Shown: piece after piece, positions 5,931 through 58,930 of the stretch
Layout: every line of letters begins with the position of its first letter
Numbering within the stretch: position 1 is the first letter of the stretch
IMG/VR virus record: IMGVR_UViG_2667527573_000005
Span: 1-64,000 of that record
DNA length: 64,000 bases
Origin: an uncultured virus (IMG/VR IMGVR_UViG_2667527573_000005)
Lineage: Duplodnaviria; Heunggongvirae; Uroviricota; Caudoviricetes
Strand: one strand, 5' to 3'
Program-made: the position numbers and the translations under genes
Notes under the pieces: generated by a model
Database searches by the model: none
Told to the model about the DNA's origin: nothing
What the model saw: the letters and a program-made list of their open reading frames with translations, nothing else

Positions 5931-6092
5931 ACTTTTTAATATTCCTTATAGTCTGTATCTTCTCCCTTATTGTGTATTTCATTCAAAATCCTCAATAGCT
6001 TACCTTCAAGTGTTTCCTTATGTAAATTGAATAAGGTTTCCACTTGTTCTCCACTAATTTTATTTTTATTCTCAATAAAAGACCGATTTTAT

Positions 6093-6248
6093 TTAGAATT
6101 CTCTGTTCTTGAAAATGTCACGATAAGTAAGTCCAGAAATCCCACGATCCTTTTTCGTTTGTTCATTGGCTTCTTTCCAATCATTTTCAGTTAAATTGGA
6201 AAACTTATTTTTAGATAACTTAGGTTTCTTGACTGCTTTAAGTTTAAT
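6093..6248 (-). CDS. 51-aa hypothetical protein with ATT start
   Basis: AGGGGG RBS, 8 nt, ATT AAA CTT...; open frame filling the intergenic gap; no in-frame ATG/GTG/TTG near the RBS. Confidence 0.5.
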   Translation of the reverse strand: MKLKAVKKPKLSKNKFSNLTENDWKEANEQTKKDRGISGLTYRDIFKNREF

Positions 6249-6252
6249 AAAA

Positions 6253-6441
6253 CTAACCCCCTAAAAATTCTGTGATTTTATTTATGTCATCGGTATTCAA
6301 ACAAATCGACACTTTCTTACTGTACTTCTTGTCTTCAATAGTCATTAAAACATGGTCTCTTCCTTTCTCGAAAATAACTTTATCTTCTTTAGGAAAAGTA
6401 CGACATTTAAAAACTTTTTTCATTGAAACAATCCTCCCCAA
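6253..6441 (-). CDS. Hypothetical phage protein
   Basis: ORF with RBS, co-oriented with neighbours. Confidence 0.6.
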
Positions 6442-6584
6442 ATCACTCCTGCAGCTATTAAGACAGAAACAAATTTCATTATTATGAAGTATTTGATATG
6501 CTTTGTTTCATCTTCAGTTAAGTTCAAGTCTGATAAAGCGAATAAACCAAACATGACCAACAAAATCCATGCTGTAACAATCAT

Positions 6585-7133
6585 CTACTTAGAACCTCTT
6601 CCAACTGTATATCCGCCGGTAATGTCATTTAAGATCGTGCTGCTTGGGGACAGCTTTTCACTCTCAATATCTTTATTTTTAGTGTAATTAATGAAATCCT
6701 CGAACTGAATCAAATACACTCCGTAAGCTGTGTTATTCAATTTATCAATGGTATCGTCACTTAGTTTCAAAAACCAGCTGTCAGTACCTTGTCCATACAC
6801 TTCAAAAATTTGAACAATCTCATCCTTAAACTCAAAGTAAGCCAGCTTATTTTCAAATTCACATTCCTCATCAACTGGATTTCCTACATGATTTGTCGCA
6901 TATTCCATCATTGAAGTAAGCATGTAACCTAATTCAACGTCCGAGAAACTTAGCTGTGGTTTAGGTGTTCCATAGTGAATATCTGCTTCATTTAGCGATC
7001 CTCTTTGATTCACTTCTCTAATGATTTCCTTCATAGCCGTACGGCCTTTGTGAATGATGAATTCCCTACGTTCCTCATCTCTTCGTTTATAATTCTCTAA
7101 TACATCATTAATATTAAATTCTGTTTTAGCCAT
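6585..7133 (-). CDS. Hypothetical phage protein
   Basis: 182-aa ORF with GGGGAG RBS. Confidence 0.75.
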   Translation of the reverse strand: MAKTEFNINDVLENYKRRDEERREFIIHKGRTAMKEIIREVNQRGSLNEADIHYGTPKPQLSFSDVELGYMLTSMMEYATNHVGNPVDEECEFENKLAYFEFKDEIVQIFEVYGQGTDSWFLKLSDDTIDKLNNTAYGVYLIQFEDFINYTKNKDIESEKLSPSSTILNDITGGYTVGRGSK

Positions 7134-7560
7134 TAGTACACTCCCCTTTGATTAACTGTTTGCAAATATTAATATATTCTTGCAGACTATTAACTGTTGA
7201 AATAATACACCCCCGAACCTCTTCAGAATCTTCAAAATCTATTTCACATTTAAGGCAATGCTCATCAATCTCAATCATTGCAAGAAATTGATCATTGTTT
7301 GGCACATTTTTAAAGTCAATATTCTTTAATCTTGGAATGCCCTTTTCCTTAATCCATTCAATAAATGGATAATCGACATTGGTTTTTGTTGTAGCGATTT
7401 TTAAAAACCCATGTATATCAAAAGAGTTCTCAATATTGAAATAAATGTGAAGGCTCTTCTTCATGAGATCAAATAATCGCATTAGCGCTTTATCAATGTT
7501 ATTGTCTGGTTTAACTTCAAATTCTAAATCAAACCATGTTGCAGAGTTTGCGTTATTCAT
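7126..7560 (-). CDS. Hypothetical phage protein
   Basis: 144-aa ORF with GGAGG RBS, coupled to neighbours. Confidence 0.75.
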   Translation of the reverse strand: MNNANSATWFDLEFEVKPDNNIDKALMRLFDLMKKSLHIYFNIENSFDIHGFLKIATTKTNVDYPFIEWIKEKGIPRLKNIDFKNVPNNDQFLAMIEIDEHCLKCEIDFEDSEEVRGCIISTVNSLQEYINICKQLIKGECTNG

Positions 7561-8294: not shown

Positions 8295-8332
8295 GTCATC
8301 CCATCCTTTTTTTGAATCAAATCAACATTTTA

Positions 8333-8638
8333 TCAATAATAAAACTCCATTAACGCATCTCTTCCTGCTCTGTTCAATAATTCAATATCGAATATTACAT
8401 CTCTTCCCTTTAATTCGTTGTAATGATAATTAGGGTCTTGCTTTTCATTGTAATGAATGAAGGAGACGTTATGAGAAGTATATACGTCATAACGATTTTT
8501 CAAAATAATCAACATTCCATTTATCTCAATTGCTCCGATTGAAACATTGTTTAACATTGTCCTACTGGGTAAAGAATGACGTAGTACACTTCTAAGTTCT
8601 TCGAATTTTTCACTTCTCTTATAACCATAACTGTTCAT
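8333..8638 (-). CDS. Hypothetical phage protein
   Basis: 101-aa ORF with AAGGAG RBS; flanked by near-consensus palindromic sites at 8317 and 8662. Confidence 0.7.
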   Translation of the reverse strand: MNSYGYKRSEKFEELRSVLRHSLPSRTMLNNVSIGAIEINGMLIILKNRYDVYTSHNVSFIHYNEKQDPNYHYNELKGRDVIFDIELLNRAGRDALMEFYY

Positions 8639-8688
8639 ATTGATCGTGCTCCTTTTCTGTATAAAATTAGAATTTCACCCGAATCGTA

Positions 8689-9565: not shown

Positions 9566-10818
9566 AGCTCACTATCCTTCTCTTTAAAATACAGATTTTA
9601 TATTAATTTAAACGTAATAACTAATTTTTTTTAGTAGGGTTCCGTAATTCATAATTCATAAGAGCTCCCCCTCGCGTGAGTATTTTCGATAACACCCTTC
9701 GCAGTAAACGTATTTAGGTATTTCGCTTCTCGGAAACCTCTCTTTACTTCCGCAGTAAGGGCATTCGACGACCTCAGTTTCGCGCAAATATAATCCGAGG
9801 TTATTCCACTTGTTTACGTCAATCATTACGTAACCACCTCTCAGCCGTTTTAATCGCGATCTCTGCGTGCTCAAGCGTTAAAGGTTCCGTTCTCTCATCC
9901 GTCAGAAATACCGCATTACCGACCCTTCCGCGCTCTTTATACCACATCATTACGATATAGCCGCCAAACCCTTCGTCAGGCGCATAATTATCGCTTAAAG
10001 GTACGTATCCTATTGATCCGCAATCCCTCCTCGTTTTTGTTTGCGTCAAAACCACGTATTATCTACGCCTTCATTGCGCTAGGCTCTTTGCTCGTCGATC
10101 ATCAGTTTTAAGTTCTTCGCCTCCATGCCGCGATTGTTCGTTACGTAAGGAATTCCGTAAGTTTCTTTGTGCTTGGCGTGCAGGTAGCCGATAAAATCGC
10201 GCGTATTCCACTTGGCGACCGGCTTTGATTCATACGTTGTCATCTTCGTCACTTCCTTCGTACTTATATTCACGTAGTACATCCGTTAAGGAAATAGAAC
10301 CCATCGAACCACTTCCGATGAATCTTCGTAATTGTTCTTTTCGGTCGGCTTTCAGAGGAGCGTAACACGCGGATTTTAATTCCGCCTCAAGCTCCGCAAT
10401 GTGATCGAGTAGCGCCGGAATGTCTTGGCGTGCGTTTGCGATGAAGTCTGCGTATACATCTCCGCTAGTCATACAAACCAAATGAACTTCACAAGATCCC
10501 GGTGGATATTCGTAGGACACGTCTGTTCTATCCGAAACAAACCACCGCGCATCTCCAACCGCTTCCGCGCGCTTACGGATTTCTTCGAGCTGTTCCTTAT
10601 TCAACCGATTCATACTTAACGCCAACCTTTCGTTTTATTTTCGTAAGATTTCCGCCCTTTACCGCAAATTTATAACGTCCGTGTCCGTGAACCTTAACGA
10701 AGTAATATCTGCTGTTTAAGAAACGCCACGACCTTGAATCTACACTTTGCGATTAACTCGGACGCCTCTTTATACGACGTTCCAATCAACCGGACAACGG
10801 CGCGATCCAGGCGGAGCA

Positions 10819-14974: not shown

Positions 14975-15357
14975 TTATCCACTCTCCTATTTTATTATTA
15001 AACTTCATTTTCACCTTGAAAGTTAAAGAAACTACTTGTCTATCAGTTTATAAATTTCCTTCTCTACCACCTTGAAAGTTGGATACCCTAAAAAACTCCC
15101 CATTTTAAATAAAATATTAGTTTTATAGTAATTTTATTTTTATTCTAAATATATAAAAGAACAAGCTGATTAACTTGTCTCTATCTTATCACCTGTTCAT
15201 TATGTATGTCTATAGTTATTTTATTTTTATTCTTTATTTATTGGTTTTGCTTTATTAGCCTTTTGTTCCGTAAGCAAGCCGGAGGCAATATTTCACCAAT
15301 TTCATAATTCATCTTACCCTATAGGTTTCACTTTTAATGCACAATAAAGAGGCAGCA

Positions 15358-17431: not shown

Positions 17432-17540
17432 CTCTTTCCTCCTTATCGATTTTAGATAAAAGTATTCTTTTATTCGGAAATATTTCCAACAAAAATCTTT
17501 TATGGTAAATTAAAAGCAATGTATTTAAAGGAGTGTTAAT

Positions 17541-19215: not shown

Positions 19216-19257
19216 TTATTAGCTCCTTTTGATTTAAGTTTGTTTAAAATTACCCTT

Positions 19258-19500
19258 TTATCGTAATTCGTTTAGTAACTCATCAAGTTCATTAGGCTTA
19301 AAACCAACACTTCGGTTTACTTCTTCTCCTTGATCATTCAGCAAAATGGTTACCGGTACTCCCATAACACCAAATCTAGCTGCCACTTCTGGTTCCTGTG
19401 TAACGTCAACTGTCTCAAATTGAATATTTGCTTGCTCTAAGTAATTGGACACCATTTTACATGGGTTGCAATTAGGCTGCTCTAATTTAATTAATCTCAT
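19258..19500 (-). CDS. yosR: Thioredoxin/NrdH-like redoxin
   Basis: CNPC active site, GVPV; 80 aa from ATG at 19500. Confidence 0.92.
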
Positions 19501-21294
19501 TGAATACATCCTCTCTCGGTAAAAATGAAATCTGAATCCCTTAATGGTTCAACCGTTGCTTTTTTGTACCCATTTCCTTTAGTTGAAAAGAAGTCATGAG
19601 ATTTGGTCTTAGTGCTCAATCCATTAATAACAATTGGGTTAACGTCTTCTTCCTCAAACAGATGATCGAATCCCAGGTTGTTTAAAGCTTTATTAGCATT
19701 GTATCTGATGAATTTCTTAACATCAGGAGCTAAGCCAACTTGATCATAGACATCTTCTGTATACTCCAATTCATTTTCGTAAAGCTCCTGCAGTAAGTTT
19801 AAAGCCCATTCGTATAATTCCTTTTGCTTCTGTGGTGTTTGCTTCTTATAAATCTCCTGAGCTAGCAATCCGATGTATGTTCCATGTATCGCTTCGTCTC
19901 TAATACCCTTAGTTCAACCGAGTTCGCTACTATCGGTTCGTTGCCTTACCGCAACCGCCTTACGTTACCGTAAGGAGCAGACTATATCATCATCCCAGTA
20001 GGATGCCTCCCGTTTCGATTTAAGGGGTTCTCACCCACGCCAATAGCTTGCGCCCTACTCGTTTTGCGGAATTTCGCCGCCTATGCGATAGTCGTTGAAC
20101 GTTCTATGCGATCCCATAAAGTCTTCCATCTTCTTTTATGTCGAATTAGACTAACGTAACGAGGATGAAGGCTGTATTTTTCACCAGCTTCAACATTGTT
20201 CATTCCAGCAATCAAATCATAGATTAAATTTGTTGCCTCCATATTAGTGAGCTTTGACATTGAATTACTTTCTCCAGGTTGTCCTGACATTAATCCAATT
20301 TTCATTGCATGTAGAGTATTTTCTTTAGGTGTAACTATTTCTAAGTTCCGAACGTGGTTGTTTAGTTTATTTCCATCTATGTGGTTTACAAACATTCCTT
20401 TTGGTATATCATGAATAAAATATTTTGCGACTAACCTATGTACTAAATAGTTCTGTGTTCCTTTTTTCGGATGCGTGTATCCTATCATTTCATAGCCATG
20501 TGGAGTAATAAATGTCTTTCTTGGTTTCTTTATTTTTTTTGATATGATAACTCCCGTTTCCGTTATCCACCAAGGTGCTTCTTCGACTTCTTTCCTTATC
20601 ATTTTCACCTCCTTTGGGTTCGCATAGCTTCGCTGCTGATTGTCCTAATAAGGATTTTCCAGCAATTAGAGAGGTTCACATTTGCCGTTGCCGACAAAAG
20701 GGACTATTAAATAATCAGGTTGATGATTTCACCGCTTTGCATGAGTTTTCCTTGTCCGTAAAAGTAAAGTGGATAATAAAACCCTGAGTAGAAAAGAAAA
20801 CTCTCCAGAAACACAGATGCAACCATTGCTTTGAATAAGGAAATATCATCGTTTTTCTGAACTGCTTTATAAATTGAAACAATTGTTCTAGCCTTCTTTT
20901 GAAGAAACCTATTGTTTTTCACCCATTCGAAGACTTCATTGATCTTCTCGGTTGGAGCCAAAGTTAGAAAGATGTTGCTGTAAGATTTCGCATGGACAGC
21001 ATTTTCCATCATGGCCATAAAGTTTAATACTGCTTTTCTTTGATGCCCTTCAACGTGCTCGGCTACAATCGGCATGCCTGTGTTCCCCTGCTCTGTGTCC
21101 AATAATGTAAGTCCAGCTAAAACTTTCATATAAGTGTCTTGTTCCTTTGTTCCAAGATACTTCCAAGTGAGAAGATCGCCGTTTAATGCGATCTCTTCCG
21201 GAAGCCAGAACTGCTTTACGTTTTGGTTGTAAAACATTTGGGTAAAATCATCTTCATGCTTTGACCAGTTTGCTGCGTCATAAATTTTTGTCAA
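19497..21294 (-). CDS. nrdF: Class Ib ribonucleotide reductase beta subunit, split by an intron: exons 21294-20714 and 19905-19497 (329 aa spliced)
   Basis: Exon 1 ...GEIINL-AT joined to T-ATT-AGA-GAC restores [10 protein letters not shown]; 581+409 = 990 nt. Confidence 0.95.
19906..20713 (-). ncRNA. Group I self-splicing intron (808 nt) in nrdF
   Basis: 5' exon ends in U, intron ends in G; removal restores the frame; contains GATATAGTC core-like motif and an HNH ORF. Confidence 0.93.
20081..20608 (-). CDS. yosQ: Intron-encoded HNH homing endonuclease
   Basis: VHRLVA...[11 protein letters not shown]...NLE...EN..HA motif. Confidence 0.93.
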
Positions 21295-21540
21295 TTATTT
21301 ATCCTCCTTTTCTAATTTGAAAATCACGTCTGTACTACAGGTAGGACATGCGTCGTTGAGGGTAGTAAAACCGTCGTAATCGCATGTAGTTATCTTTCTC
21401 TTTTCACTAGATCCGAAAATATGCCCGTTAATACATTCGTACTTTTGTTCGTTAGCTTCGAAATTAAGTCCACAACCTAATAACAAAACCGTAACGATAA
21501 CTACTCCCCAAATAATAAAAATTGCCCCTTTCTTAAACAA
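21295..21540 (-). CDS. Small protein between nrdE and nrdF: hydrophobic N-terminus with LLGC lipobox-like motif and Zn-ribbon-like C-terminus (start uncertain: TTG 21540 or ATT 21516)
   Basis: FKKGAIFIIWGVVIVTVLLLGC...YECINGH...ACPTC. Confidence 0.55.
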   Translation of the reverse strand: MFKKGAIFIIWGVVIVTVLLLGCGLNFEANEQKYECINGHIFGSSEKRKITTCDYDGFTTLNDACPTCSTDVIFKLEKEDK

Positions 21541-24500
21541 CGCATGACAAGCAACCCTCTTGAGTCGTATCCTTCGTTCGAGCATAATACAGCGTCTTAA
21601 TTCCTTTGTGATGCGCATATAAATCAATCCGGTTCAGATCGCGCGTCGTCATCGTATCCTTCAAGAACAGCGTAAATGAAATCCCTTGATCGACGTGCTG
21701 CTGAATAGTCGCAATAAGATCAACAACTTTAAACATATCCATGTCGTACGCTTCCTTGTAGAAGAACCAATTCTGCGGCGATAAACCTGGCATTGGATAA
21801 TATGTCTTACTGTTTCCGTATGTACGTTCCTCAATTCTTTCCATAATGGGCATTACACCCGCCGTAGATGATTGAACATATGAGATGCTTCCCGTAGGTG
21901 CAATAGCCTGCCTATACGAATGGTATAAGCCATATTTCATTACATCTTCTTTAAGTTTCGTCCAATCTTCAATGTTAGGAATATGTTGATCTCCAAATAG
22001 CTTTTTAACCTTTTCAAACTGAGGGCTATAATCATTTGTTACGTACTTTTCGAAATACTCACCTGATTTATAAGTTGAACAATCAAACTTGTAGTATGTC
22101 TCCCCTGTTTCTCGTGCAATTTCCATAGAACGCTGCAGTGAGTAGAAGTTAACCATCATAAAGTATGTATTTGCAAAATCCTTAGCTTCTTCACTTTCAT
22201 AAGCAATATTATTTTGAGCTAGAAATCCATGGAGGTTCATCTGCCCAAGACCAATTGATCTCATTAGTGTATTTGCTCTCGCAACTGCTGGAGCATTTAC
22301 AATGTTTGTTTTCCTTGTGACAGTTGTCAATGAGTCAATTGCTATTCTTACTGTTGAAGCAATTGATTGATTACTCATTACATTTACAATGTTCATTGAG
22401 CCAAGATTGCAGGAGATATCTAAACCAATTTCATCTTCCTGATCATAATCTGTATAAACTGATACTTGTGATGATTGAAGTACCTCTGAACAGTTGCCAG
22501 TAACAATTCCATTGAAAATCAGAGAGTGATAGTCTTCTTGTGTTGTATCATAAACATCCTCAACACCATCTTCTTCAATACTAATAATTTCAGCTGTAAA
22601 ATCATGCTTTGGCTTTCTTGACTTAGGTTGCAATGTCTCAGTTAACAAATTGAATTTATAAACATCGTAATCTTTCAATTCAACAATACTCATAAACAAC
22701 TCTCTTGAGTTTCTATCTTGAATACTGATTTTGTGTGTTGGTTTAACATTGTAAAGCTTAGAACCGCCTTTTCCATCAGGAAGGAGTTCTTGTGAGCGCT
22801 TGTTGTTAGAATAAATCGTTGTATAAACACCCATGTTCAGTAACAGCTTCTGAACGTCCTGAAGGCTCTCATAGTGGATGGATGTTAACTCAATAGTTAA
22901 TGCTTTGGCTTTATGATTTGCATTTACACACCCATCAGTCTGGAATAAACCCGATAAATAAGCTGCTTGCGTTTCCTTGTTAGCTTGAAAAATGAATTCT
23001 GGGACTCTTGTTTTTCTTTCTTTGTTCATACCGAACTTCTTCAAGATGTCAAATAAGACAGTACTATTCATGTAAAGCAAATCTTGTTTTTCTGGGTTGG
23101 CCATATTAAATGTTGGGAGAAGTGATGTATTGTGCTTATAAGCACGATCAACCTTGTGTTTATGAATAATACGGTGAACTGCATCAGTAACTTTCTGCTC
23201 AAGAACTTTTTTATTATCGTATAAATAAATCTTGGCAGTTTTTTCAGTAATTGTTCCATCACCAGCTATAATGCCCATAATGTATGCAAGATCGGGTTCA
23301 TGAATTTTCCCGTATGCTCCTTCAGCTGATTGGACTAATAATTTATCGCCCGTTTTCAGTTGATTCAATTGGAGCTTTTGAATTTCGCCATCTCTTTTCA
23401 CATAGAATTTGTGCCACTCAGTTGCCCTAATTTCATATCCTTGCTTCGTTTTGACTTTAAATATTTCCGCATCTTTTTTAGTCAGTTGCATTGGAATTGC
23501 ATCTACAATTGTTGTACCTTTGCTATCAACTGCAAAATCTTTTGTTCTATTATCAATGACAACTTTAAGATTATTCTGCTTTTTGTAAAGATCGGCTGCT
23601 TTTTCATATCCATTCTCAGTTAAAAGAAGTGTTTCTCCAGTAACACACAAATTTGAAAACTTCACTTTTGAAATATGTTCATTTGGATGCACTTTATTTA
23701 CATTGTCAGCAAACATGACATATGGATAACCAGATTCGCTTCTTAGAATGGCCAATTGCTCTAACAGCTTTCGAGCATTTCCCTTTGATTTTCTAATCCT
23801 AGGATTTTCGACAAGCTCATCATACATTTTATTGATGTCCATCTCATCAAGATACTGTCTATATTCTTTGTAGACTGAATGAGGATAGAACATGTAATAA
23901 TCCTTGTCTTCCCTTGCAAGTTCAATAAATTTATCTGGAACAACTACACCAATAGATAATGTTTTAACTCGGACATCTTCATCAGCACTTATTTTTTTGG
24001 TATCTAGGAAATCTGTAATGTCTGGATGGAATACACTTAGATAAACTGCTCCTGATCCTTGTCTTTGTCCCATCTGATCTGCATATCTAAAAGCATTATC
24101 CAATAGCTTCATAACACCTACGACACCTTTAGTCGCATTCTCTACGTCTTTAATCGCTTCACCTTTGGCTCTTAGTTTGTTTAGATTTAATGCTACTCCT
24201 CCACCTAGCTTAGAAAGCTGCATGGAGATATCAATAGCACGTGAAATATCATTCAAACTGTCGCCTACTTCAAGTAAGAAGCAGCTCACCATTTCACCTC
24301 TTCGCTTACGTCCAGCATTAAGGAAAGTAGGTGTTGCCGGCTGATACTCTTGTTTCATCATAGTATGTACTTCCTCAACAGCTTTCTCATAATCACCATC
24401 AGCGCAATATAAAGCCACAATTGAGACACGATCCTCGTACCTCTCCAGGATCTTTGTTTTATCGTTTGTCTTCAATGCGTAGTCATTGTAGAACTTAAAC

Positions 24501-25498: not shown

Positions 25499-25499
25499 T

Positions 25500-27338: not shown

Positions 27339-27365
27339 TGGTTATTCCTCCTTTTCTCTTTAAAA

Positions 27366-27701: not shown

Positions 27702-27754
27702 ATCTGCCTCTCCTTTTGCAAAATTGGTTTAAAATAAAACTTTTATTTAGATCT

Positions 27755-28510: not shown

Positions 28511-28642
28511 TATCTTCCCTCATTGATGATCTTCTTTAATGCTTTTAGAAGCATATTTAGTGATTTCTTGTCACCCATTTCATCCCGACTTAATTTATCC
28601 TGCATTTCAGTTGCTCCTTTCACGATAAAAATTGAATTTTAT

Positions 28643-30439: not shown

Positions 30440-30560
30440 ACATCAACACTCCCACCAACATTATTTTTATTCTAAATAAAATTGATCTTTTATATAGATC
30501 CCAATGTTCTTGTCCCGCTTCTTAGTATTAAGTATCATTAAATTAAGGTAGGGTGAGACA

Positions 30561-41558: not shown

Positions 41559-42530
41559 TTATTCAGATAGAAGGTCTTTTAGATCATCTAGAATTACAGA
41601 CATTACACCTACTTGCTTACGGCTGCACTCAGTAACTTTTACACCCTTACCTAAATGTTTTTCTGTAATCTCATTAACTTCTTCTAAACGACCTTCTTCA
41701 TTAAGCTTCATGCCAATTTCTTTAATTTGATCCATTAATGAGTTGAAATCAAGTTCTTCTGAAGCGTTGTTTTGTTTTTGCTCTTCGTATGTAACAGCAA
41801 CAATTCCTTCTGCTTGCTCCTGTCTCTCGACTGCTTCAATAATTGCTTTTTCTAAGTTTTCTGCAGTAAATTCAGGTAAGTATGTGTCAATGTAATCAAA
41901 TCGGCTACGAGCAAAATGCTCTTCAGTTTCAGCTAACCAAGCACTTGATTTGATTACTTTTCTATCTTCATCAACACCATTAGAACTTAGATAGAGAACA
42001 ATATCACTGTTATCAATTACTGGAGCTAAAACTCGTTTATCCCCCTTAGGATATACTTTACCTTTTTTGTCTTCAGCAGCATGAGCAATAAAGATAACAG
42101 TAAATCCTACACCAATTAATTTATTGATTTCTTCCCATACTTCAGTTTCATACTCTTTCCAAAGGCCAAACCCATCATTACCATCTTTAATCCGTTCTAC
42201 ATCATATTGCTCACATACGTATCTAGTTGCATATTTAGCAAAAGCGTCTACTTCATCAACAATGATTGTCTGATACATTTCTTTGGCCTTTTCAGCATTT
42301 TTAGTTAACTGTTTGTTTACCTTTTTAAAATCAGCCCAACTATTGATAGGCATGAATTGTACGCCTGCGATTGCATTTAATCCTTTTTCGAATGGCAGAT
42401 ACAAAGGTTTCTTCATCCGAGTGCTTTGCTTAGTTTTACCTAAGTTGTTAGAACCGTAGATTGTGATAACTTTTCCTTCTAATCCTTTTGCTACTACAGA
42501 AACTTGAGGGTTGAAAATATCGATTGCCAT
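41559..42530 (-). CDS. yorG: AAA/Sak4-like ATPase
   Basis: YGSNNLGKT, IIVDE, FIAH. Confidence 0.88.
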   Translation of the reverse strand: MAIDIFNPQVSVVAKGLEGKVITIYGSNNLGKTKQSTRMKKPLYLPFEKGLNAIAGVQFMPINSWADFKKVNKQLTKNAEKAKEMYQTIIVDEVDAFAKYATRYVCEQYDVERIKDGNDGFGLWKEYETEVWEEINKLIGVGFTVIFIAHAAEDKKGKVYPKGDKRVLAPVIDNSDIVLYLSSNGVDEDRKVIKSSAWLAETEEHFARSRFDYIDTYLPEFTAENLEKAIIEAVERQEQAEGIVAVTYEEQKQNNASEELDFNSLMDQIKEIGMKLNEEGRLEEVNEITEKHLGKGVKVTECSRKQVGVMSVILDDLKDLLSE

Positions 42531-44720: not shown

Positions 44721-44967
44721 TAATTCAATAACATATTACCATGAGGGGAAAAACTTAACAATTCCTTTTGAAATTAAAATAAAATGATGATTTTATTGGG
44801 TTATAGATAAAAGAGCCACCTAGTGGCAGCTCCAGAGTTGATCAGCCTCCGACTCTAACTTCCATATTAGCTCATCCCCCAATAATATTAATCACTTTTT
44901 AACCCCCAAAACCATTTTAATACTCTCCCTTAGGATTAAAGAGAATTATATCATGAATTTATAAAAT

Positions 44968-46285: not shown

Positions 46286-46376
46286 GTCTTCATAACTAAG
46301 TCCCTTTTGTACAAAATAATTTCTTGCTTCTTCTGAAGTCATTTAAACATCTCCCTATCTGGTTAAAATATCGTTT

Positions 46377-46823
46377 TTATTTAGATTCTAAAAGCTCAGG
46401 ATCTTCGTAAATGTTACCTATGACTTCATAATCTTCTTCACAGTAATTTATATCCCCGATCCAGCATATACCTTTCCCGTTTTCTTCCCCTGTATAATCT
46501 GAATAATAACGGCTATTAATGTTCTCTAAAGTAAATGAGCCATCCCGAAATCCGACTGAAGCAGTAAAGTGTTCTTCTATTTCGTTTCCATCAAAGAACC
46601 AGTGAACACAATGAATAATATCCCCCTCGTAAATCTCCCGGCTGTTCTTATCCTTCAAACCGGTATATTGCATTAAAGGCGATACATTTGAAAACTCGTT
46701 TCTGAAATAACAAGCTAACTCCTCTTCGTCATTATTGAGAAGTTCGTCCCAGTCAATCATTCGTGGAAATTCTTGACCATCTCTTTTCTCTGTATGATAA
46801 GCGCGAAACTTGAATTCCCTCAT
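46377..46823 (-). CDS. YopX family protein
   Basis: MREFKFRAY, LMQYTGLKDKN..EIYEGDII, EVIGNIYEDPELL. Confidence 0.9.
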   Translation of the reverse strand: MREFKFRAYHTEKRDGQEFPRMIDWDELLNNDEEELACYFRNEFSNVSPLMQYTGLKDKNSREIYEGDIIHCVHWFFDGNEIEEHFTASVGFRDGSFTLENINSRYYSDYTGEENGKGICWIGDINYCEEDYEVIGNIYEDPELLESK

Positions 46824-47996: not shown

Positions 47997-48060
47997 CAAA
48001 AATCCCCTTTTTAATTTTATTTTCATCCTTATAAAATCTCTGTTTTATCTAGATTTCTGT

Positions 48061-50145: not shown

Positions 50146-50224
50146 TTTTCATTCCCCATTTCTAATAAATTTAAATTTGATTAAAACTACATAAAATAAA
50201 TATTTTATTTTCACTCTAATTTGA

Positions 50225-50338
50225 TCACCAATCCAGTCCTAAATCGTCCATAATACTTGTCATTGCATCATCCTCTTCCTCTATTAAACCGTAATCAGCA
50301 AGCCTGTTTAAATAGTCTTCTCGCTCGTGTTTGGTCAA
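50225..50338 (-). CDS. 37-aa acidic peptide
   Basis: AGGAGG RBS; MTKHEREDYLNRLADYGLIEEEDDAMTSIMDDLGLDW. Confidence 0.55.
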   Translation of the reverse strand: MTKHEREDYLNRLADYGLIEEEDDAMTSIMDDLGLDW

Positions 50339-51162
50339 TTTCTTTCCTCCTTTAATTCCACATTAATGTTCAATACCTTTGCAATACGCTTACCTACCTC
50401 ATCGGAAACTGTTTGCGATACCCTATCCTTAAAGCCATACAGCAATCGACCACCATCCCTAAAACCTTCTTCAATAAGAGAGTCAATCTTTGCTCCCACA
50501 ATTATGTCCAGTTTTCCTGACTCAAACAGCTTCTGAACTTCGTTAGAAACCGCAACACTAATCATTTCTTGTATGTCTTGCCTTGTGATACCTAAGTCAT
50601 TATGTATGAGGTTTTTTATTTCTTTGTATCCACTATTTTTATTTTCAAATGTCTTCTCACATTTATCTAATGGAACAAGAACGCGGTAATCTTCATGTGG
50701 GACACGCCATGCGACTGCCCTCGTTTCAAATCGAACATAAATATAGCGAGGTGGACTTTGATACCCAACAGTTCCAATCTCCCCTTTACAGTAAATATCA
50801 CATTTAGTAATCGTAATAACTTTCTCGCCTACTTTTGCCTTACGATCGGCCATTTCGTAGCGCTGACCGTCAATGTGAACGATGTCGGTCGGTTTGAGTA
50901 CGCGGTATTCGCGATCATATAAGGCGATCGATTGCCCATTTGCGAGTATAGATTCCACATAATAACCGAGTCTTGAGTCGTCTTTTACGAATCGACTGAC
51001 AAACGCCATATCACCGTTTCTATATTCGGATTGACAGTCCGCCTTAACAATAATTATTCTTTCGCCAACCTCCGCCTTCCGATCGACCTCGATGTATTCC
51101 CGCTTGATACCGCCTAGTGTTTCGTCAGCCAGTACGTGGATGTTTACGTTAGATTTCGTCAT
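50335..51162 (-). CDS. Chimeric hypothetical protein with two N-terminal repeats
   Basis: Repeats VDRKAEVGERI...EYRVL and ADRKAKVGEKV...DYRVL, followed by an unrelated helical tail. Confidence 0.7.
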   Translation of the reverse strand: MTKSNVNIHVLADETLGGIKREYIEVDRKAEVGERIIIVKADCQSEYRNGDMAFVSRFVKDDSRLGYYVESILANGQSIALYDREYRVLKPTDIVHIDGQRYEMADRKAKVGEKVITITKCDIYCKGEIGTVGYQSPPRYIYVRFETRAVAWRVPHEDYRVLVPLDKCEKTFENKNSGYKEIKNLIHNDLGITRQDIQEMISVAVSNEVQKLFESGKLDIIVGAKIDSLIEEGFRDGGRLLYGFKDRVSQTVSDEVGKRIAKVLNINVELKEERN

Positions 51163-51600: not shown

Positions 51601-51639
51601 TTAACTATCCTCCTAAGTTATTAAAATAAAAACTATCTT

Positions 51640-52086
51640 TTATTTGAAATATTGCACAACTCCATCACCCTCAAAGTTAAATGGCTGTGGTGGCGGAGTT
51701 GATCCTAACAAGGCGTATGATTTTTGTCGCATTTGTTTAAATGCCATTGATAAATTTTTCGATTTCATCAATTTTTCAAGTAACTGTTTCCCTATTTGCT
51801 CTAATATTTTCATAGACTCATTTTTAGTTATGTCCATTTTAGGTATTGGTAAGTCCATAACTAATGCACCTGTCGTTATCTCTGAAACCTTTAAGGTATC
51901 ATCTAATGGTGTCACACAAAAACTATATCCACCGACAAATACTTCGTGACCAACTGCCTGCTTCCAATGATTTTTGTAATTTAAGCTGAAACGCTTCAAA
52001 TTAGCATCAACTATAATTTTTTCACATTCCAAATTGAGCATCCTCCAACTTGTGATTATTCGTATATATCTTCTTTGAAATCCCAT
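51640..52086 (-). CDS. Hypothetical phage protein
   Basis: ORF; likely start near 52040 after GGAGG. Confidence 0.7.
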   Translation of the reverse strand: MGFQRRYIRIITSWRMLNLECEKIIVDANLKRFSLNYKNHWKQAVGHEVFVGGYSFCVTPLDDTLKVSEITTGALVMDLPIPKMDITKNESMKILEQIGKQLLEKLMKSKNLSMAFKQMRQKSYALLGSTPPPQPFNFEGDGVVQYFK

Positions 52087-52379
52087 AATGTGGCGTTTGA
52101 TTTATTCTCATTATCATTTTCTTTCATTTCAAACTCTTCAGTATTGAACGAATAATAATTCTTCTTAACCTTGGCTAAGATTACCCTTTCGTCGCCATAA
52201 ATTTCATTTCCATTGATCTGGGTGTCCTCATTTAGATTATCTTTAGTCCGCTCATATGCTAAATTTGCTTCGTCTTCATCATCATAAACCCCAATAAGAC
52301 CAAGCTCATGTTCAAATACCATCCACAATTCATTATTTTTACTCATTTCATTGAGCCTCCTCTTTCTGTTTAAAATCAC
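52056..52379 (-). CDS. Acidic hypothetical phage protein
   Basis: ORF; likely start MSKNN after AGGAGG. Confidence 0.7.
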   Translation of the reverse strand: MILNRKRRLNEMSKNNELWMVFEHELGLIGVYDDEDEANLAYERTKDNLNEDTQINGNEIYGDERVILAKVKKNYYSFNTEEFEMKENDNENKSNATLWDFKEDIYE

Positions 52380-52470
52380 GATTTTAAGTTAATTTTAAAG
52401 CGTATCACATTGAAGAAACCTATTTTCATTGGTAAAATTTTCACAAGTAATATTTAGATGAGGTGACATC

Positions 52471-53447: not shown

Positions 53448-53472
53448 CCCCTTTCTATATAAAACAGTCTTT

Positions 53473-53667
53473 TTATTGAAAATATTTATCTGATGTGCGG
53501 GCCATGTCTTCCCCGCCTAAATAGTTTTTTATTTCATTTAAGCTATAAATGACCTTATCGAATTTATCCCTAATGTGCAGTGCATATTCAACTGATGAAT
53601 CAGACATCCCTAATTCCTTTAGATTTGTGTCTAATTCTTTAAAGTAGCCTTGTAACTTTACGTTCAC
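53473..53667 (-). CDS. Hypothetical phage protein
   Basis: 64 aa; stop codon lies inside the palindromic site at 53460. Confidence 0.6.
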   Translation of the reverse strand: MNVKLQGYFKELDTNLKELGMSDSSVEYALHIRDKFDKVIYSLNEIKNYLGGEDMARTSDKYFQ

Positions 53668-53715
53668 TAAAAACTCTCCTTTTTTATTGAATTCTTTTCT
53701 TATTAAACTTCAATT

Positions 53716-53940
53716 TTATTTTGATTTAATCTCAACAATTAGACTGTCAGGATAGTTCTTCAAATCAAGTGCGTTTACATGACAGTGACCTACATATCCT
53801 TCTTTATCAACGTAATTATAATAAAACTTTTCCCCATTATTAATGATAACTTCACCCTGATGTGTATACTCCATCTCTAACTTTTGTGCCAGGTATGATT
53901 TTATTTAAATCAAATATTGTTATTTCTTTTAGCAAAATCA
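53716..53940 (-). pseudogene. Frameshifted small gene
   Basis: MILLKEITIFDLNKIIPGTKV / EMEYTHQGEVIINNGEKFYY...IVEIKSK in two frames; bounded by sites 53970 and 53703. Confidence 0.55.
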
Positions 53941-53993
53941 TTTCCTCCATTTCCATTTTCCACTCTCTATAAAATTTTACTTTTATCTAGAAT

Positions 53994-56201
53994 TCATTTG
54001 GCTTCCAATACCACAGTTTCTTTTTCAAAATCATTTCTCAATTTGATAATGGAAGTTGATTTTAGATACCCTCTGTCCTTTGTCTTAGCCCATGCAAAAA
54101 ATCTATTATGCAAAGGAGTGTAAAGGCTTCCTGTGTTAACCATATGCTCATGTTTGTTGCTGATCTTATGCTTTACTCCCCTCATTTGTTTCCAAAAGTT
54201 ATAGTAAGGGAGCTTAAGTTTTGTCATGAAGCCAGTAGCATCTTCAATTACATAACCCTCTCCCTCAATTGAAAAATCTTGTGACACGTCCAGATACCAT
54301 CTATAGAAATCTGTCCAGTTACTAAACTCCGCAACTTGTTTTTTGCACTCAATGGATAAACACTCTGCAGTAGCTTTCACTTCACTGTAAGGGAGTTTTT
54401 CATATATCATTTGCCTTTTTACGATGTCTAATAGGACTAGCTTGTCTTTACTGTATTCAATGATATGCGGATCTTTTTTTGGAAGTATTACTTCAAAAAC
54501 GAATGAAACATTATTTAGCTTCAGATAATCTTTAATGATATTTACCTTAAATTCATCAAAGGACTTGAAGAACAGCTCCTCGACCCATTTTGCATGGTCA
54601 TTTGATAATTGAGATGTAAAGGATTTAGAAGTGAATACCAACTGATCTGACAAAGAGTCATACCCTACAGTCCCTAAATATCCATTCGCCTTATCGAAGA
54701 CTGTTACTGGAAACTTCATTGTATCTACGAGATGATGCATCCTTGTTTCAGACCGTTCTCCAATATTAAAAAATTTATCATAGCTTCTACTTACAATTTC
54801 ATTGCTCTGGGTGTTAATAAACAAGCCCCTTGCCTTAATATTTGTTTCATCCCACTTTTTCTTTCTAAAGGCTTGCTTTGTAAAATTAAATGATGAGATA
54901 TTGTTTGGCATCTTGTTCTCTTGGACATATTCATGATCACGTAAGTGGGAAACCAAATCATCAATTGTTCCAACAGTTACACTATTACTCTGCACATCAC
55001 TTGAACTTTGTTTAAAAACTTTATTCTTCACTTCATGCGTTTCAATTCCGTTCTCAGACAGTGTAACGACTCTAAGATGACCTCCTCTTTCCACTTGCCC
55101 TTCCAGGTTATAAGATCTTTCTGCTGCTAACACAGGTAAACGGTACATGTTTCTATGTCCATGAATCTGTACAACATTTTGGCCAGCCGTATTTTTTGCA
55201 AATTCATAATCAATATCGTCTGAATAATCTCCAACTCCATTGATGAATTGTGTTGTTGCGGTCATCAAGAGATTTTCAGGTACGGTTGAAACTCCTCCAT
55301 GAGTTACAATGTATGTAGTGTTTTTATATGTAAAGTAAGCTAACTGATGAAACTTCCTGGCCAACTGTCTAATGTCTTTTTTATCAATGTTGGATTGTTC
55401 GATTTCTGGTTTAGTTTTGTTGTTAAATGTGCTGCTAGGTGTTTCTTCATCATTCCCATACATATTGATATATCTATCGTGATTTCCTTCCAGAATAATC
55501 ACATTTTTATTATCTTTAATTTTGATCATGAATTCTAATAGCTGTGCATTTTCAATACCTCTGTCGATAAGATCTCCTACAAAGATGTATAGTTCATTTT
55601 CATTTAAATCACCGTTTAAGTACTCTTGAAGCACAGTATTACACCCATGAACATCTCCGAAAATATGAATCTTTTTATAATCGTCAAAACATCTCGGCTT
55701 ATAAGTCATCGTGTTGTCAAACTCATCTGGTTTTAGAACAGTTACCCAAGATGGCACTTTTTCTGTTGTCATTCTTTCATAAATATTTATAATACTGCTT
55801 TCAGGAACATGTTTATGTTCAGCCCTCATTTTATTTCTTTTTAAGATTCTCCGAACATCAACATCAGAAAAATCAACTACATATACACGGTATCTATATT
55901 TTTGAGCTAGTGGCTTATATCTTGAAATCATGCTTTGCTTTGAATGAGTTGCATCGATAATTGTGAATTCACCGCGATCCATCCTATCTTCAAGCAACTT
56001 TAGTAATAAATCCCACACCTTGTTGTCGTGTTTTGGAGAGATTTCATATTTTCCACTTTTGTTTAACACAGGTGACTGAAACAGCAGTCTAATGTTGTCT
56101 GCAGAAAGAGTGTATTGCTCAAGTCCATTTTCCTTAATCCAAGTTGATTTCCCCACTCCTGGGCACCCTCTTAATAACACTAATGTTCTCATTTCCATCA
56201 A
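53994..56201 (-). CDS. Trifunctional RNA repair enzyme: polynucleotide kinase + metallophosphoesterase + Rnl1-type RNA ligase
   Basis: GCPGVGKS and IIDAT; GDVHG, GDLIDRG, GNHD, THGG, HGH; ARGLF, YDKFFN, KANG, FVFE, EGYV, KLK. Confidence 0.9.
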   Translation of the reverse strand: MMEMRTLVLLRGCPGVGKSTWIKENGLEQYTLSADNIRLLFQSPVLNKSGKYEISPKHDNKVWDLLLKLLEDRMDRGEFTIIDATHSKQSMISRYKPLAQKYRYRVYVVDFSDVDVRRILKRNKMRAEHKHVPESSIINIYERMTTEKVPSWVTVLKPDEFDNTMTYKPRCFDDYKKIHIFGDVHGCNTVLQEYLNGDLNENELYIFVGDLIDRGIENAQLLEFMIKIKDNKNVIILEGNHDRYINMYGNDEETPSSTFNNKTKPEIEQSNIDKKDIRQLARKFHQLAYFTYKNTTYIVTHGGVSTVPENLLMTATTQFINGVGDYSDDIDYEFAKNTAGQNVVQIHGHRNMYRLPVLAAERSYNLEGQVERGGHLRVVTLSENGIETHEVKNKVFKQSSSDVQSNSVTVGTIDDLVSHLRDHEYVQENKMPNNISSFNFTKQAFRKKKWDETNIKARGLFINTQSNEIVSRSYDKFFNIGERSETRMHHLVDTMKFPVTVFDKANGYLGTVGYDSLSDQLVFTSKSFTSQLSNDHAKWVEELFFKSFDEFKVNIIKDYLKLNNVSFVFEVILPKKDPHIIEYSKDKLVLLDIVKRQMIYEKLPYSEVKATAECLSIECKKQVAEFSNWTDFYRWYLDVSQDFSIEGEGYVIEDATGFMTKLKLPYYNFWKQMRGVKHKISNKHEHMVNTGSLYTPLHNRFFAWAKTKDRGYLKSTSIIKLRNDFEKETVVLEAK

Positions 56202-56571: not shown

Positions 56572-57302
56572 TTCGCCCTTTTGAACAGTTTTTTAAACCA
56601 ATTTTCCTTTTCGTTAACTACTGAAAATCCGGGATTATTCATCCTAAACCCATTTGCTATCTTGTCCATGCTGTTTAACTGTATCTTCAATTGCTCAATA
56701 TCTTGGGGTGTATTGATGGTCATTGCAATATTGGATTCTTTTGCTTCCTGTACTTCGGAAATCATCTTATCTAAAGTGAGATCACAATATTCGTCTTCCC
56801 AGTCACCTATGTAATAAAAACGTTCAATCAAAGTACCGCTCGATTCATCTTGAAAAGTGCCAAATAAAATTGGATCTTTATCTCTCCGTTCTTTTTCGAT
56901 CTGCCTTTCAACCTTCCCCGTATAATCTGTAAACACCACATAAAACCGATCCAATTTGTCTTTCACTTTGTTGTATTTAATGATTACCTCATCAGGGATT
57001 TCACGTTCGTAATTTTCAAGCTCAATAATTTTGACTGTATCTTTTGCAATGTTATCTATGTATTCTTCAATGTCGTCCCGATAAACAAACGTATCAATAC
57101 CAAGCTTTACAATCTCCCGTTCTTTTTCAATTGATTCTAAATGGAATATCAGTTTCTTTGCAGCTTTAATTTGATTGGTTTGCTTATATTTATTGAGTAA
57201 TACCAAGCAATTGTCGTAATACCTTTGAAGCTCTTTGTCTGTAACCTTATTTTTCTTTGATTTAATCATGTCGAAATATTGATTTGGTTGTAACATTTCC
57301 AT
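56568..57302 (-). CDS. Hypothetical phage protein
   Basis: 244-aa ORF; KDPILFG, YYIGDW.DEYCDLT look like conserved motifs. Confidence 0.8.
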   Translation of the reverse strand: MEMLQPNQYFDMIKSKKNKVTDKELQRYYDNCLVLLNKYKQTNQIKAAKKLIFHLESIEKEREIVKLGIDTFVYRDDIEEYIDNIAKDTVKIIELENYEREIPDEVIIKYNKVKDKLDRFYVVFTDYTGKVERQIEKERRDKDPILFGTFQDESSGTLIERFYYIGDWEDEYCDLTLDKMISEVQEAKESNIAMTINTPQDIEQLKIQLNSMDKIANGFRMNNPGFSVVNEKENWFKKLFKRAK

Positions 57303-57318
57303 CTTTCCACTCCTTTAC

Positions 57319-57567
57319 TTAATCTAATTCCCTCATGTCTTCTCTCTGCTCAATATAACTTTTAAAGTCCTCCCACTCTCTATCGATCTCTTTAATATTC
57401 CTAGCAATATAGGCTTCTGCAATGGCTGGATCAATCAACTTTTGAAGAGACAGCTGATACATAAATTCAATCTTTGACACTGTTTCTAGAAATGACTGGG
57501 CATAACTTTTTGCTTTATTTAAGCGATATTGACTCATTCCATGTTTTGATTCCATTATTATTCTCAC
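57319..57567 (-). CDS. Hypothetical phage protein
   Basis: ORF with AAGGAG RBS. Confidence 0.7.
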   Translation of the reverse strand: MRIIMESKHGMSQYRLNKAKSYAQSFLETVSKIEFMYQLSLQKLIDPAIAEAYIARNIKEIDREWEDFKSYIEQREDMRELD

Positions 57568-57605
57568 TCCTTTTAATCACATTAAAATGCATCTTTTATT
57601 TTAAA

Positions 57606-58652
57606 TTAACTGTAGAGGTTATATGTAGCTTCATTTATTTTAATTTTCCTGTCATCCATGAATAAGATATATGCATGGTCAAATTTCCCTTTGTTTTTCC
57701 CCCTAGTTAAAAACTTTGGCTCTGATACATTTAAACCATTTTCATCAACATATTCTTTCATCATTCTAAAGGCTTCTTGACTGTACTTTATTTCGGAAAC
57801 AGTTTGACCCCCTTTTTCCGTAAGATTAATACTAATACAATCATCTTGGTAACCAGCAGCACCTTTAGGGGTTTTATAAAACCCAAGGTCTCTTGCTAGA
57901 TTCTCTGCAAATCTAATATGTGGCTTATGAGTTAAAGAGAATACATTAAATTTTCTGGCTATCGATTCTGCAGACATGTCTCCTTCTCTAAGAACTGTGG
58001 TTTTAGAAATTTTGTGGCTAATCTCATCAACTTTGTTGTTTACTTCTTCAATCCTTTTATCATTTAGATATTGGTTTAGTTCAAGTTTACAAGTATTTAA
58101 TTGGTTAATTGCAACTAAATCAGCACTATCAACTTTAAGAACATCTTCATACATCTTAATTTTCATCTTTAAGGTTCTTTCATGAATATCTTCAGTTCTC
58201 ATTATTTCATTTTCAATTCTATCGAACTTCCCTTCTTTACTTAGTTGCGGATTGACTTCTCTTCTCATAAATTTTTTGAACCTGTTCGCATGACCAGAGT
58301 TTGAATAATGCATAACCCCAAAAATTCCTTCTTCTAAGACAATATCTAAAGTAGGTACTCTCCAATATTGCTGTTTTAAAGTCGTTGCCAAATTGGCAAC
58401 GAGTGAAGGTGAGTCGTTGCCTTCCAGGATACTCTTCTTAAAAATTTTCAAGTTATCGTCTGACAAAGATATGTATTCAAAACCTTCCTCAAATTCTTCT
58501 CTTGTTTTGATGTTATGCCATGCTTTTCTTACATCCTTATAACCTTCAAAGGACATTAATTCTGAAGCAAGAGTTGCAACTTTACCGTCTAATTCAAATA
58601 AAAATAAATTCCTGTTCTCATCGATAGAGAAATTAATAATATTTTTTTCCAT
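57606..58652 (-). CDS. Bro-N domain antirepressor-like protein
   Basis: LASEL...GY.D...; EEGIFGVM..S....A.RFKKFM..EV.P.L pattern; coiled coil. Confidence 0.75.
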   Translation of the reverse strand: MEKNIINFSIDENRNLFLFELDGKVATLASELMSFEGYKDVRKAWHNIKTREEFEEGFEYISLSDDNLKIFKKSILEGNDSPSLVANLATTLKQQYWRVPTLDIVLEEGIFGVMHYSNSGHANRFKKFMRREVNPQLSKEGKFDRIENEIMRTEDIHERTLKMKIKMYEDVLKVDSADLVAINQLNTCKLELNQYLNDKRIEEVNNKVDEISHKISKTTVLREGDMSAESIARKFNVFSLTHKPHIRFAENLARDLGFYKTPKGAAGYQDDCISINLTEKGGQTVSEIKYSQEAFRMMKEYVDENGLNVSEPKFLTRGKNKGKFDHAYILFMDDRKIKINEATYNLYS

Positions 58653-58690
58653 ACTTTTTACATCTCTCCTTTTATAAATCTCGATAAAAC

Positions 58691-58930
58691 TTACATTTTA
58701 TTTTGATTCTTAATGATTTCATTCTTTCTCTCTTCATTTGTAAAAACAATATCCTTTAAAATAAACTGTATTTCTTCGAGGTTGTCCTTAACAAAGTCCA
58801 AATCACCAATGGTCTTTCTTATTTCATCCTTATTCAAGTTATGTAAAGCTCTGTTGCATGAAGCAAAAACCTTTAAAAATTTTTTCATGACCATGTTTTT
58901 TATTTCTTTATTCTGCGGATCATTAATCAA
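58691..58930 (-). CDS. Hypothetical phage protein
   Basis: 79 aa; stop codon within the site at 58685. Confidence 0.65.
   Translation of the reverse strand: MINDPQNKEIKNMVMKKFLKVFASCNRALHNLNKDEIRKTIGDLDFVKDNLEEIQFILKDIVFTNEERKNEIIKNQNKM

Follow-up and report, generated by a model that had tools for sequence, protein, structure and literature searches.

The 64,000-nt stretch analysed here (the window) comprises bases 1–64000 of the 127,190-bp provirus record of an SPbeta-like Bacillus phage, and it carries a dispersed palindromic element, TAAAA-N6-TTTTA, whose six central bases (the spacer) differ from copy to copy. In related phages each spacer keeps its place in a fixed series while the DNA on both sides of it changes. 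Based on these sequence comparisons, the elements are probably 11-6-11 tyrosine-recombinase sites which recombine only with a site of matching spacer, i.e. sites of recombinase-mediated cassette exchange (RMCE) between phage genomes. With about an even chance of being right, we extend this to a broad group of tailed phages of Bacillota: they would possess a genome-wide crossing-over system, made up of one YomM-family recombinase and an ordered series of up to ~60 mutually exclusive addresses. The genome would then behave as if segmented, and co-resident phages with almost no other common DNA would swap slots, including counter-defence genes, like for like, without homology or self-deletion. 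The window covers the early and replication region and is coding almost wholly on the minus strand; its first 25 kb are matched by 47 phage records, the best at ~95%.

The hexamers reported by a first-pass annotation of this DNA were all located, in the listed order, as the centres of TAAAA-N6-TTTTA (first core at 6076–6091 with its spacer at 6081, last core at 58685–58700), and its count of 21 sites with 21 different 6-bp spacers is correct. The pair TAAAA/TTTTA occurs 21 times in the window at spacing 6 and 0–4 times at each other spacing from 0 to 15. Word counts predict 1.06 copies; Markov simulations (100 each of order 2 and order 5) gave means of 0.95–0.96 copies and never more than 3 and 5, respectively. 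There are 33 strict copies in the 127,190-bp genome as a whole, and their spacers are all different in either orientation. Three extra sites with one core mismatch are found at 8317, 8662 and 53703, and their spacers occur in relatives. The outer bases widen the core to a loose 11-6-11 palindrome, TCTAAATAAAA-N6-TTTTATTTAGA, giving a site of 28 bp. This is the geometry of a simple Cre/Xer-type core site (inverted arms around a fixed spacer of 6–8 bp), with spacing 6 alone being enriched. Gene junctions hold 22 of the 23 scored sites, and five of the 23 start on the upstream stop codon, inside operons; the majority of sites are located directly upstream of a ribosome-binding site.

The order of the spacers was compared across 45 viral loci around yoqW, 16 around yosL and 50 around yotM, with the window and SPbeta added. 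The coding-strand series of the yoqW region begins TGTAAG, GATGCA, GTAAAA, TTGAAG, AGACTG, GGATTA, TCGTGA, GATAGT, TATTTA/TAGTTA, CAGAGA, ACGATA, GTAATT; two distant yoqW contigs (G003 and G004) contain no sites. For spacers seen at least three times, a minority order is found in 2 of 1988 pairwise observations (47 sequences) and in 0 of 844 (18 sequences), and both minority observations involve one hit, which is probably spurious. Within these 47 and 18 sequences no spacer occurs twice in one sequence. A fixed order could by itself reflect descent; the flanks, however, are mostly not in common. Among 5450 classified same-spacer pairs (ambiguous ones dropped), both flanks are unrelated in 3400, only the left flank is shared in 1005, only the right in 663 and both in 382, although the compared loci are related and the pair counts are not independent events. 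At the AGACTG address, for instance, relatives show 12 families of left flank and 7 of right flank, which meet in 29 combinations. The left outer 6-mer is identical in 0.66–0.67 of the pairs with a shared left flank and in 0.06–0.09 of those without; the corresponding values on the right are 0.70–0.73 and 0.13–0.14. Past the edge of the 16-bp core identity is no higher than background, and the outer arms travel with their own flanks.

Looking at pairs with one shared and one unrelated flank, selected irrespective of the spacer, the spacer is the same in 860 of 1044 and 533 of 615, i.e. in 1393 of 1659. In full orthologues the central four bases of the spacer are 0.98–1.00 identical, its end bases 0.85 and 0.95, and the flanks 0.93–0.95. 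One-sided pairs differing at three or more spacer bases are few (35 of 1044 and 5 of 615, in 6 and 2 distinct spacer pairs); these mismatched joins are mostly between neighbours of the series, and one gene end is found at two distant addresses. By comparison, then, the crossover lies within the core, the arms stay with their own flanks and the partner spacers are identical, as at a core recombination site; the resolution is the 16-bp core, since the invariant TAAAA and TTTTA allow no finer placement. The suggestion of the first-pass annotation that the spacer is a positional address is supported by this: the spacers are bound to their slots in one order while both flanks change, and the check which it named, conservation of a spacer at a syntenic slot across SPbeta-like genomes, was passed. 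Its proposal of exchange with the same-spacer site of a related phage likewise gains comparative support from the break of homology at the core. The two alternatives which it offered find none: the spacers do not vary freely, as they would in the operator of a dimeric protein, and joins keep a matching spacer, in contrast to Tn916-like homology independence.

Many borders of recent exchange lie at the same elements. For near-identical tracts of at least 300 bp, 106 of 236 distinct ends into unrelated DNA fall on a site (24-bp window; 0.011 expected), compared with 13 of 225 where a tract runs into diverged homologous DNA and 7 of 581 where it runs into close homologues. Tract starts peak 0–2 bases before TAAAA and tract ends 14–18 bases after the start of the core; since these peaks lie just outside TAAAA and TTTTA, both spacers are inside the exchanged tract. 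A breakpoint is present at 19 of the 22 gene junctions of the window with a site, and at 16 of the 66 without. The clearest case is the cassette at 8317–8677: phage FADO has it between the same two addresses, with 358 of 361 bases identical and flanks of only 38% and 24% identity, and the Goe12 copy equals the FADO copy over 364 bp, with yet other flanks. FADO and this genome have only 1,976 aligned bases in common; the other high-identity block of FADO also ends near two addresses common to both genomes, and 7 of its 33 spacers are common with this genome (~0.8 by chance). In four metagenome runs from four studies (contigs only), contig pieces end at 27376–27377 and begin at 30476–30479, and the joints replace the slot 27376–27730; joints through repeated SroF boxes with 21–28 letters per side were disregarded. 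Concerning four laboratory hybrids of phi3T and SPbeta, 8 of 9 crossovers lie in identical tracts of 1.4–18 kb which hold sites and often start or end on one. Short A/B flips near 1.2, 23.6 and 48.1 kb, one of which recurs in two hybrids, were excluded from the nine; they probably arise because the 1990s SPbeta record differs from the true parent.

Enzymes of the Cre/Xer family cleave at the edges of the spacer and need a spacer match. By analogy, each TAAAA-N6-TTTTA would be the core of a site, 28 bp long, on which a simple tyrosine recombinase acts, with the two arms binding the enzyme and the six-base centre acting as the strand-exchange region, where a match would be required to finish the exchange. 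Because the centre of each site is its own and the order of the series is fixed across relatives, the only partner open to a site would be its counterpart on another genome present in the cell, be it a sister copy, a co-infecting phage or a resident prophage. A single crossover would produce a left/right hybrid and two would replace the content between two addresses; the borders are observed, and the reaction is what we infer from them. Self-deletion would be avoided by the non-matching spacers within a genome, and the rare joins of unequal neighbouring addresses, of which a few cases were seen, would create or delete slots.

We tentatively suggest an older housekeeping use of the sites between sister copies (to circularise DNA with terminal redundancy, or to form and resolve multimers), later extended to a dense cassette system in SPbeta-like phages, because the smaller lytic relatives have a sparse and evenly spaced site backbone. 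Backbone sites occur every 10–16 kb, some of them inside core genes, and the largest gaps in four SPbeta-like genomes are ~16 kb. SPbeta-like phages are described as packaging by headful from concatemers (bioRxiv 2021.11.22.469490), and VPE25 as circularly permuted, with an integrase that is left unexplained there (PMC4999554; also bioRxiv 2020.09.22.309401). Tsamsa, reported with fixed 284-bp ends (PMC3903500), argues against circularisation as the general reason. Concerning sites inside genes, a site-like match is present within the replicative helicase gene of SPbeta (103854) and its orthologues, with the spacer variants GAAGGA, GCAGGA and GCAGGT, and is absent from the helicase gene of this phage; FADO, Kirov and phi127 also have sites inside tape-measure or recombinase genes.

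The recombinase-type proteins encoded by the genome are a serine integrase, an inactive-type MrpR, YopP and YomM, the last of which adjoins the tape-measure gene in the tail operon. The enzyme acting on the sites is, somewhat more probably than not, the tail-operon YomM, a choice which rests on co-occurrence; the alternatives are YopP/SroD, YomM and YopP together, or a host Xer enzyme. The YopP proteins of the SPbeta and phi3T types, which have the same sites, are 31% identical; for YomM the identity is 98% or 65%. A structural model of YomM (predicted local distance difference test, pLDDT, 80) matches XerA and Cre, i.e. the Xer/Cre fold, and its R, K, H, H and Y residues are invariant in 31 relatives.

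The distribution of the motif is given here as copies against copies of a reversed control. The counts are 30/7 in E3, 17/2 in Perkons, 17/8 in a Staphylococcus SPbeta-like phage, 37/3 in phi127, 33/1 in FADO, 25/1 in Kirov, 14/6 in 6ec, 7/2 in P1, 7/0 in Satyr, 7/3 in 949, 7/5 in W15, and 2/0 in both Basilisk and BtiUFT. The motif is enriched in E3, Perkons, phi127, FADO and Kirov. No enrichment is seen in any of five large control phages of the same host genera (SPO1 0/0, K 4/4, A511 0/1, EF24C 1/2, AR9 9/10). The motif is enriched in all 28 YomM-bearing viral contigs which were chosen from 79 YomM loci for length and divergence (10–61 copies against 0–5). We had supposed YopP to be absent from distant phages; this was wrong, as a profile search found YopP-family genes in FADO, Kirov, phi127 and 949, which leaves the smaller lytic phages and W15 as the sole cases that separate the two enzymes. 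In each of 9183, P1, Satyr and 6ec, PF00589 is matched by no protein other than the YomM-like one, and the sites of these four are conserved. The small lytic phages (9183, P1, Ldl1 and Satyr) carry 4–7 strict sites, which are ~10–14 kb apart in 9183, P1 and Satyr; the even spacing is significant in 9183 (P = 0.001) and P1 (P = 0.006) and not in the large genomes. Five of six syntenic spacers are the same in P1 and Satyr, and in this group homology blocks start at sites. At one syntenic site the spacers of P1 and Satyr are reverse complements (TTCAAA and TTTGAA), and the address TGGTAA is common to P1, Satyr and Ldl1. W15, with a divergent YomM and no YopP-profile match, contains a variant array, TGAAA-N6-TTTCA, of 25 copies (1.8 expected) with 25 spacers, mostly in front of ribosome-binding sites. 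In the gut phage MT835469 the variant array T[G/A]AAA-N6-TTT[C/T]A has 50 matches over ~90 kb (25 of them TGAAA-N6-TTTCA), nearly all before ribosome-binding sites.

A number of observations weigh against addressed exchange by YomM, in addition to the relatedness of the compared loci. The distinctness of the spacers, which the first-pass annotation had taken as telling, is no evidence alone, and we rejected it as such: the probability that 21 spacers are all distinct by chance is 0.95 with uniform bases, 0.91 with genome composition and 0.77 with position-specific composition, and nine genomes pooled contain no repeats where 2.07 are expected (P = 0.12). In the relative G002 one spacer is present twice, the second copy having weak outer arms (score 8.2 vs 24.7). 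Most borders lie off the sites: in the window, 39 of 105 breakpoint events are within 12 bp of a core and 66 are off-site, and of the 733 alignment ends between four whole genomes only 80 come within 10 bp of a site, the majority lying elsewhere; ordinary recombination therefore also acts. The 1.4–18 kb tracts of the hybrids suit homologous recombination equally, and the hybrids were dropped as direct proof; one of the nine crossovers is in a 39-bp stretch without a site, and the study itself reports 15 of 16 junctions in homologous regions, read by its authors as homologous (bioRxiv 2020.05.06.055103). On the side of the enzyme, YomM of the SPbeta clade has Lys in place of the Arg of HxxR (Arg in distant members), W15 has four PF00589 matches, and a YopP-family protein is also encoded by 27 of the 28 enriched contigs, which for that reason cannot separate YomM from YopP. 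The motif counts of 9183 (7/5), VPE25 (7/4) and Ldl1 (4/3) differ little from their controls. BtiUFT6.51-F combines a YomM-like gene with two sites only, and Lactococcus phage 949 has enzymes of both families and no detectable array; no comparable array with spacing 6 came out of a de novo palindrome search in 949, BtiUFT6.51-F and Basilisk, whose enzyme resembles the YopP profile more closely.

The cores could instead be short-homology linkers, i.e. 16-bp stretches used by general recombination (the Sak4-like protein, host RecA), perhaps started by a palindrome-binding or nicking protein, with no site-specific strand exchange. Both a Sak4-like and a RecU-like protein are encoded by the phage, the common stretch is longer where the spacers match so that fidelity of slots is predicted here too, and the site-free crossover and homologous junctions of the hybrids agree with it. 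We nevertheless regard it as unlikely: identity at swapped borders is confined to the A/T-rich 16-bp core, with the outer arms following the flank and not the slot, and an invariant palindrome with fixed 6-bp spacing over several host genera needs a sequence-specific dimeric binder. Circular cassettes inserted and excised independently of homology, in the manner of Tn916 or integrons, are the least probable of the explanations. Joins of unequal spacers and the gene end at two distant addresses would fit such a movement, whereas the fixed order, the same spacer in 82–87% of one-sided joins, the presence of both resident addresses in exchanged tracts and the neighbourhood of most mismatched joins do not. 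The same address logic could also be served by the host XerC/D pair (CodV/RipX), which we consider only marginally more credible than circular cassettes. Lactococcus, the host of phage 949 in which the array is missing, uses a different Xer system, in agreement with such a role. The arms, however, are symmetric and not of the C/D type, and the core is probably unlike the Firmicute dif. The core also changes with the phage (the W15 variant) and is not enriched in the five control phages of the same host genera, whereas the 11-6-11 geometry and the matched-spacer pairs are as described for Acinetobacter pdif modules (PMC9947245).

A palindrome with a free centre, mostly just upstream of ribosome-binding sites, could also be the operator of a dimeric regulator such as SroD or SroE, its spacer being passive and kept only by descent, and SPbeta-like phages are described as using recombinase-fold repressors. 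This too is very unlikely, since the spacer centre is better conserved than the flanks and common to unrelated flanks, five of the 23 scored sites begin at a stop codon within an operon, and the motif is present in lytic phages without a YopP-family gene. The known boxes are, moreover, other sequences. MrpR is reported to bind SPBRE at ten promoters (PMC10516654), and the literature describes MrpR/SroF, a repressor of recombinase fold, as inactive as a recombinase in SPbeta. Most MrpR-promoter genes of SPbeta are preceded by a different, non-palindromic motif, and the palindrome is present in only three of the ten SPBRE promoters (260–300 bp upstream compared). SPBRE, with letters inferred from the named promoters, has seven copies in SPbeta and none in the window. 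The phi3T SroF box as printed in bioRxiv 2025.11.27.690993 is the other repeat of the window, with 14 copies (6057, 15131, 15218, 17192, 24946, 29129, 29390, 32312, 32660, 43557, 43996, 53094, 59007 and 60225), three of which abut palindromic sites (6076, 15110 and 29108). SPbeta and phi3T differ in their repressor boxes and have the palindrome and 22 spacers in common. The palindrome was accordingly rejected as an SPBRE/MrpR operator, as it differs from both the SPBRE and the Phi3TRE boxes, and MrpR/SroF is not the reader of the palindromic sites because it binds a different motif.

Table 1. Palindromic sites and selected genes of the window (spacers as on the given strand, coding-strand form in brackets).
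Feature	Position	Spacer	Remarks
Site core	6076–6091	GACCGA (TCGGTC)	Same address and slot in SPbeta, phi3Ts, Goe12 and G001
Degenerate site, one core mismatch (outer half)	8317–8332	(TGTTGA)	Border of cassette 8317–8677
Degenerate site, one core mismatch (outer half)	8662–8677	(TTCTAA)	
Site core	9585–9600	TACAGA (TCTGTA)	
Site core	15110–15125	TATTAG (CTAATA)	
Site core	17457–17472	GTATTC (GAATAC)	Variant GAAGAC in relatives
Site core	19245–19260	TTACCC (GGGTAA)	Core starts with stop codon of thioredoxin gene
Site core	27361–27376	TCATCC (GGATGA)	Metagenome contig pieces end at 27376, 27377 in 2 of 4 runs
Site core	27730–27745	TAAAAC (GTTTTA)	
Site core	28626–28641	ATTGAA (TTCAAT)	
Site core	29108–29123	GGAATA (TATTCC)	
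Site core	30477–30492	TTGATC (GATCAA)	
Site core	32528–32543	TGATTC (GAATCA)	Within 5' part of open reading frame (ORF) 31978–32628 as called
Site core	44780–44795	TGATGA (TCATCA)	Relatives at about the same slot: TGATAA, TTATCA or T/CTGTAG
Site core	46364–46379	TATCGT (ACGATA)	Core starts with stop codon of upstream gene
Site core	48032–48047	TCTCTG (CAGAGA)	
Site core	50192–50207	TAAATA (TATTTA)	Variant TAGTTA
Site core	51627–51642	ACTATC (GATAGT)	Core starts with upstream stop codon
Site core	52371–52386	TCACGA (TCGTGA)	
Site core	53460–53475	CAGTCT (AGACTG)	
Degenerate site, one core mismatch	53703–53718	(TTGAAG)	Absent from the first-pass list
Site core	53970–53985	TTTTAC (GTAAAA)	
Site core	57583–57598	TGCATC (GATGCA)	
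Site core	58685–58700	CTTACA (TGTAAG)	
One-gene cassette	8317–8677		ORF 8333–8638, 101 aa, phrog_34883; between addresses TTCTAA and TGTTGA
Cargo of slot GATAGT–TATTTA, 275-aa protein	50335–51162		77% identical to 279-aa phi3Ts protein of same slot
Sak4-like single-strand annealing protein	41559–42530		
MrpR/SroF repressor, recombinase fold	60278–61249		
YopP/SroD-type tyrosine recombinase, 356 aa	62699–63769		R-K-H-R-H-Y residues present
YomM, 344 aa	104378–105412 of whole genome		Outside window; site just behind stop codon (105414)

The coordinates of the sites and of the genes concerned are presented in Table 1; the one-gene cassette and the four protein genes listed there for the window are all on the minus strand. 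The cargo of slot GATAGT–TATTTA is probably a relative of the counter-defence protein and NADase inhibitor Nip, as judged from the length of the phi3Ts protein; in SPbeta the same slot holds the small yoqT instead. An Ant-like anti-repressor (57606–58652) exactly fills slot TGTAAG–GATGCA. Slot GATGCA–GTAAAA contains a 735-aa polynucleotide kinase/phosphatase-RNA ligase (53994–56201), a possible RNA-repair counter-defence cargo. An HNH endonuclease splits nrdF in an intron-like manner, as in SPbeta, nrdE is long and intein-like, and one more HNH gene is free-standing (20081–20608, 21533–24844 and 25500–26228). Outside the window, an AbiH abortive-infection gene and a UvrD helicase gene are found in a site-rich accessory region at ~70–74.5 kb of the genome.

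Several known systems have traits in common with the proposed exchange. The pdif (pXerC/D) modules of Acinetobacter plasmids are 28-bp 11-6-11 sites which flank accessory genes, with several spacers per replicon; reversible recombination is reported to need identical spacers, mismatched fusion being rare and its reversal not seen in that work (PMC9947245). As in pdif, the sites studied here flank accessory genes and, by comparison, pair by matching spacers. Unlike pdif, which depends on host XerC/D and asymmetric XerC/XerD half-sites, they have symmetric arms and a candidate phage enzyme; same-spacer pairs within a plasmid lead there to inversions and fusions, whereas here the replacement would be like for like between genomes, each of which has tens of sites, almost all distinct, in a fixed order. 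In engineered RMCE with heterospecific lox or FRT sites, a cassette is replaced by two crossovers at two non-cross-reacting spacers; the present system would be natural, evolved in phages and genome-wide, with more than 30 addresses per genome. P1 Cre–loxP cyclisation also combines a simple two-domain recombinase with a headful-packaging phage, but with one site, compared with many distinct ones here. Integron attC sites, which are much longer than 28 bp, and Tn916, with its variable 6-bp centre, have a tyrosine recombinase and gene-sized cassettes which insert, excise and reorder without spacer matching; here the order is fixed, the spacers match and no such movement of cassettes is seen. The boundary sequences of lambdoid phages are repeated junction elements at shuffled modules, used by general recombination. 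Likewise, the PeSL cassettes of T4-type phages have repeated junction elements where modules shuffle, but they are described as promoter/terminator homologies acting by general recombination and within-genome mini-circles, with no address or recombinase-site geometry in that account (PMC2839356). SPBRE and Phi3TRE, the MrpR/SroF operators, are also repeated intergenic motifs of the same phages whose boxes are read by a recombinase-fold protein (PMC10516654; bioRxiv 2025.11.27.690993); they are reported as non-palindromic and monomer-bound and differ between SPbeta and phi3T, in which the palindrome is identical.

The literature searched, chiefly open-access, contains no description of such a motif or system, and in the part of it scanned for the word no listed paper names yomM. 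The chemistry would be of a known kind; the ordered, genome-wide series of addresses for exchange between viral genomes is, as far as we can tell, new. The usual explanation of sharp-bordered phage mosaics is selection acting after illegitimate or relaxed homologous recombination. Here, in relatives that include the model phages SPbeta and phi3T, mosaic borders coincide with a defined site of recombinase type that carries a positional code, and programmed exchange of modules thereby becomes a directly testable idea. If correct, it would assign a role to the so far unexplained ‘integrase’ of obligately lytic phages such as VPE25 and 9183, and it would explain the arrival of defence and counter-defence genes at fixed slots. 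It would also yield dozens of natural, mutually orthogonal spacers for a single recombinase, which may be useful in cassette-exchange engineering.

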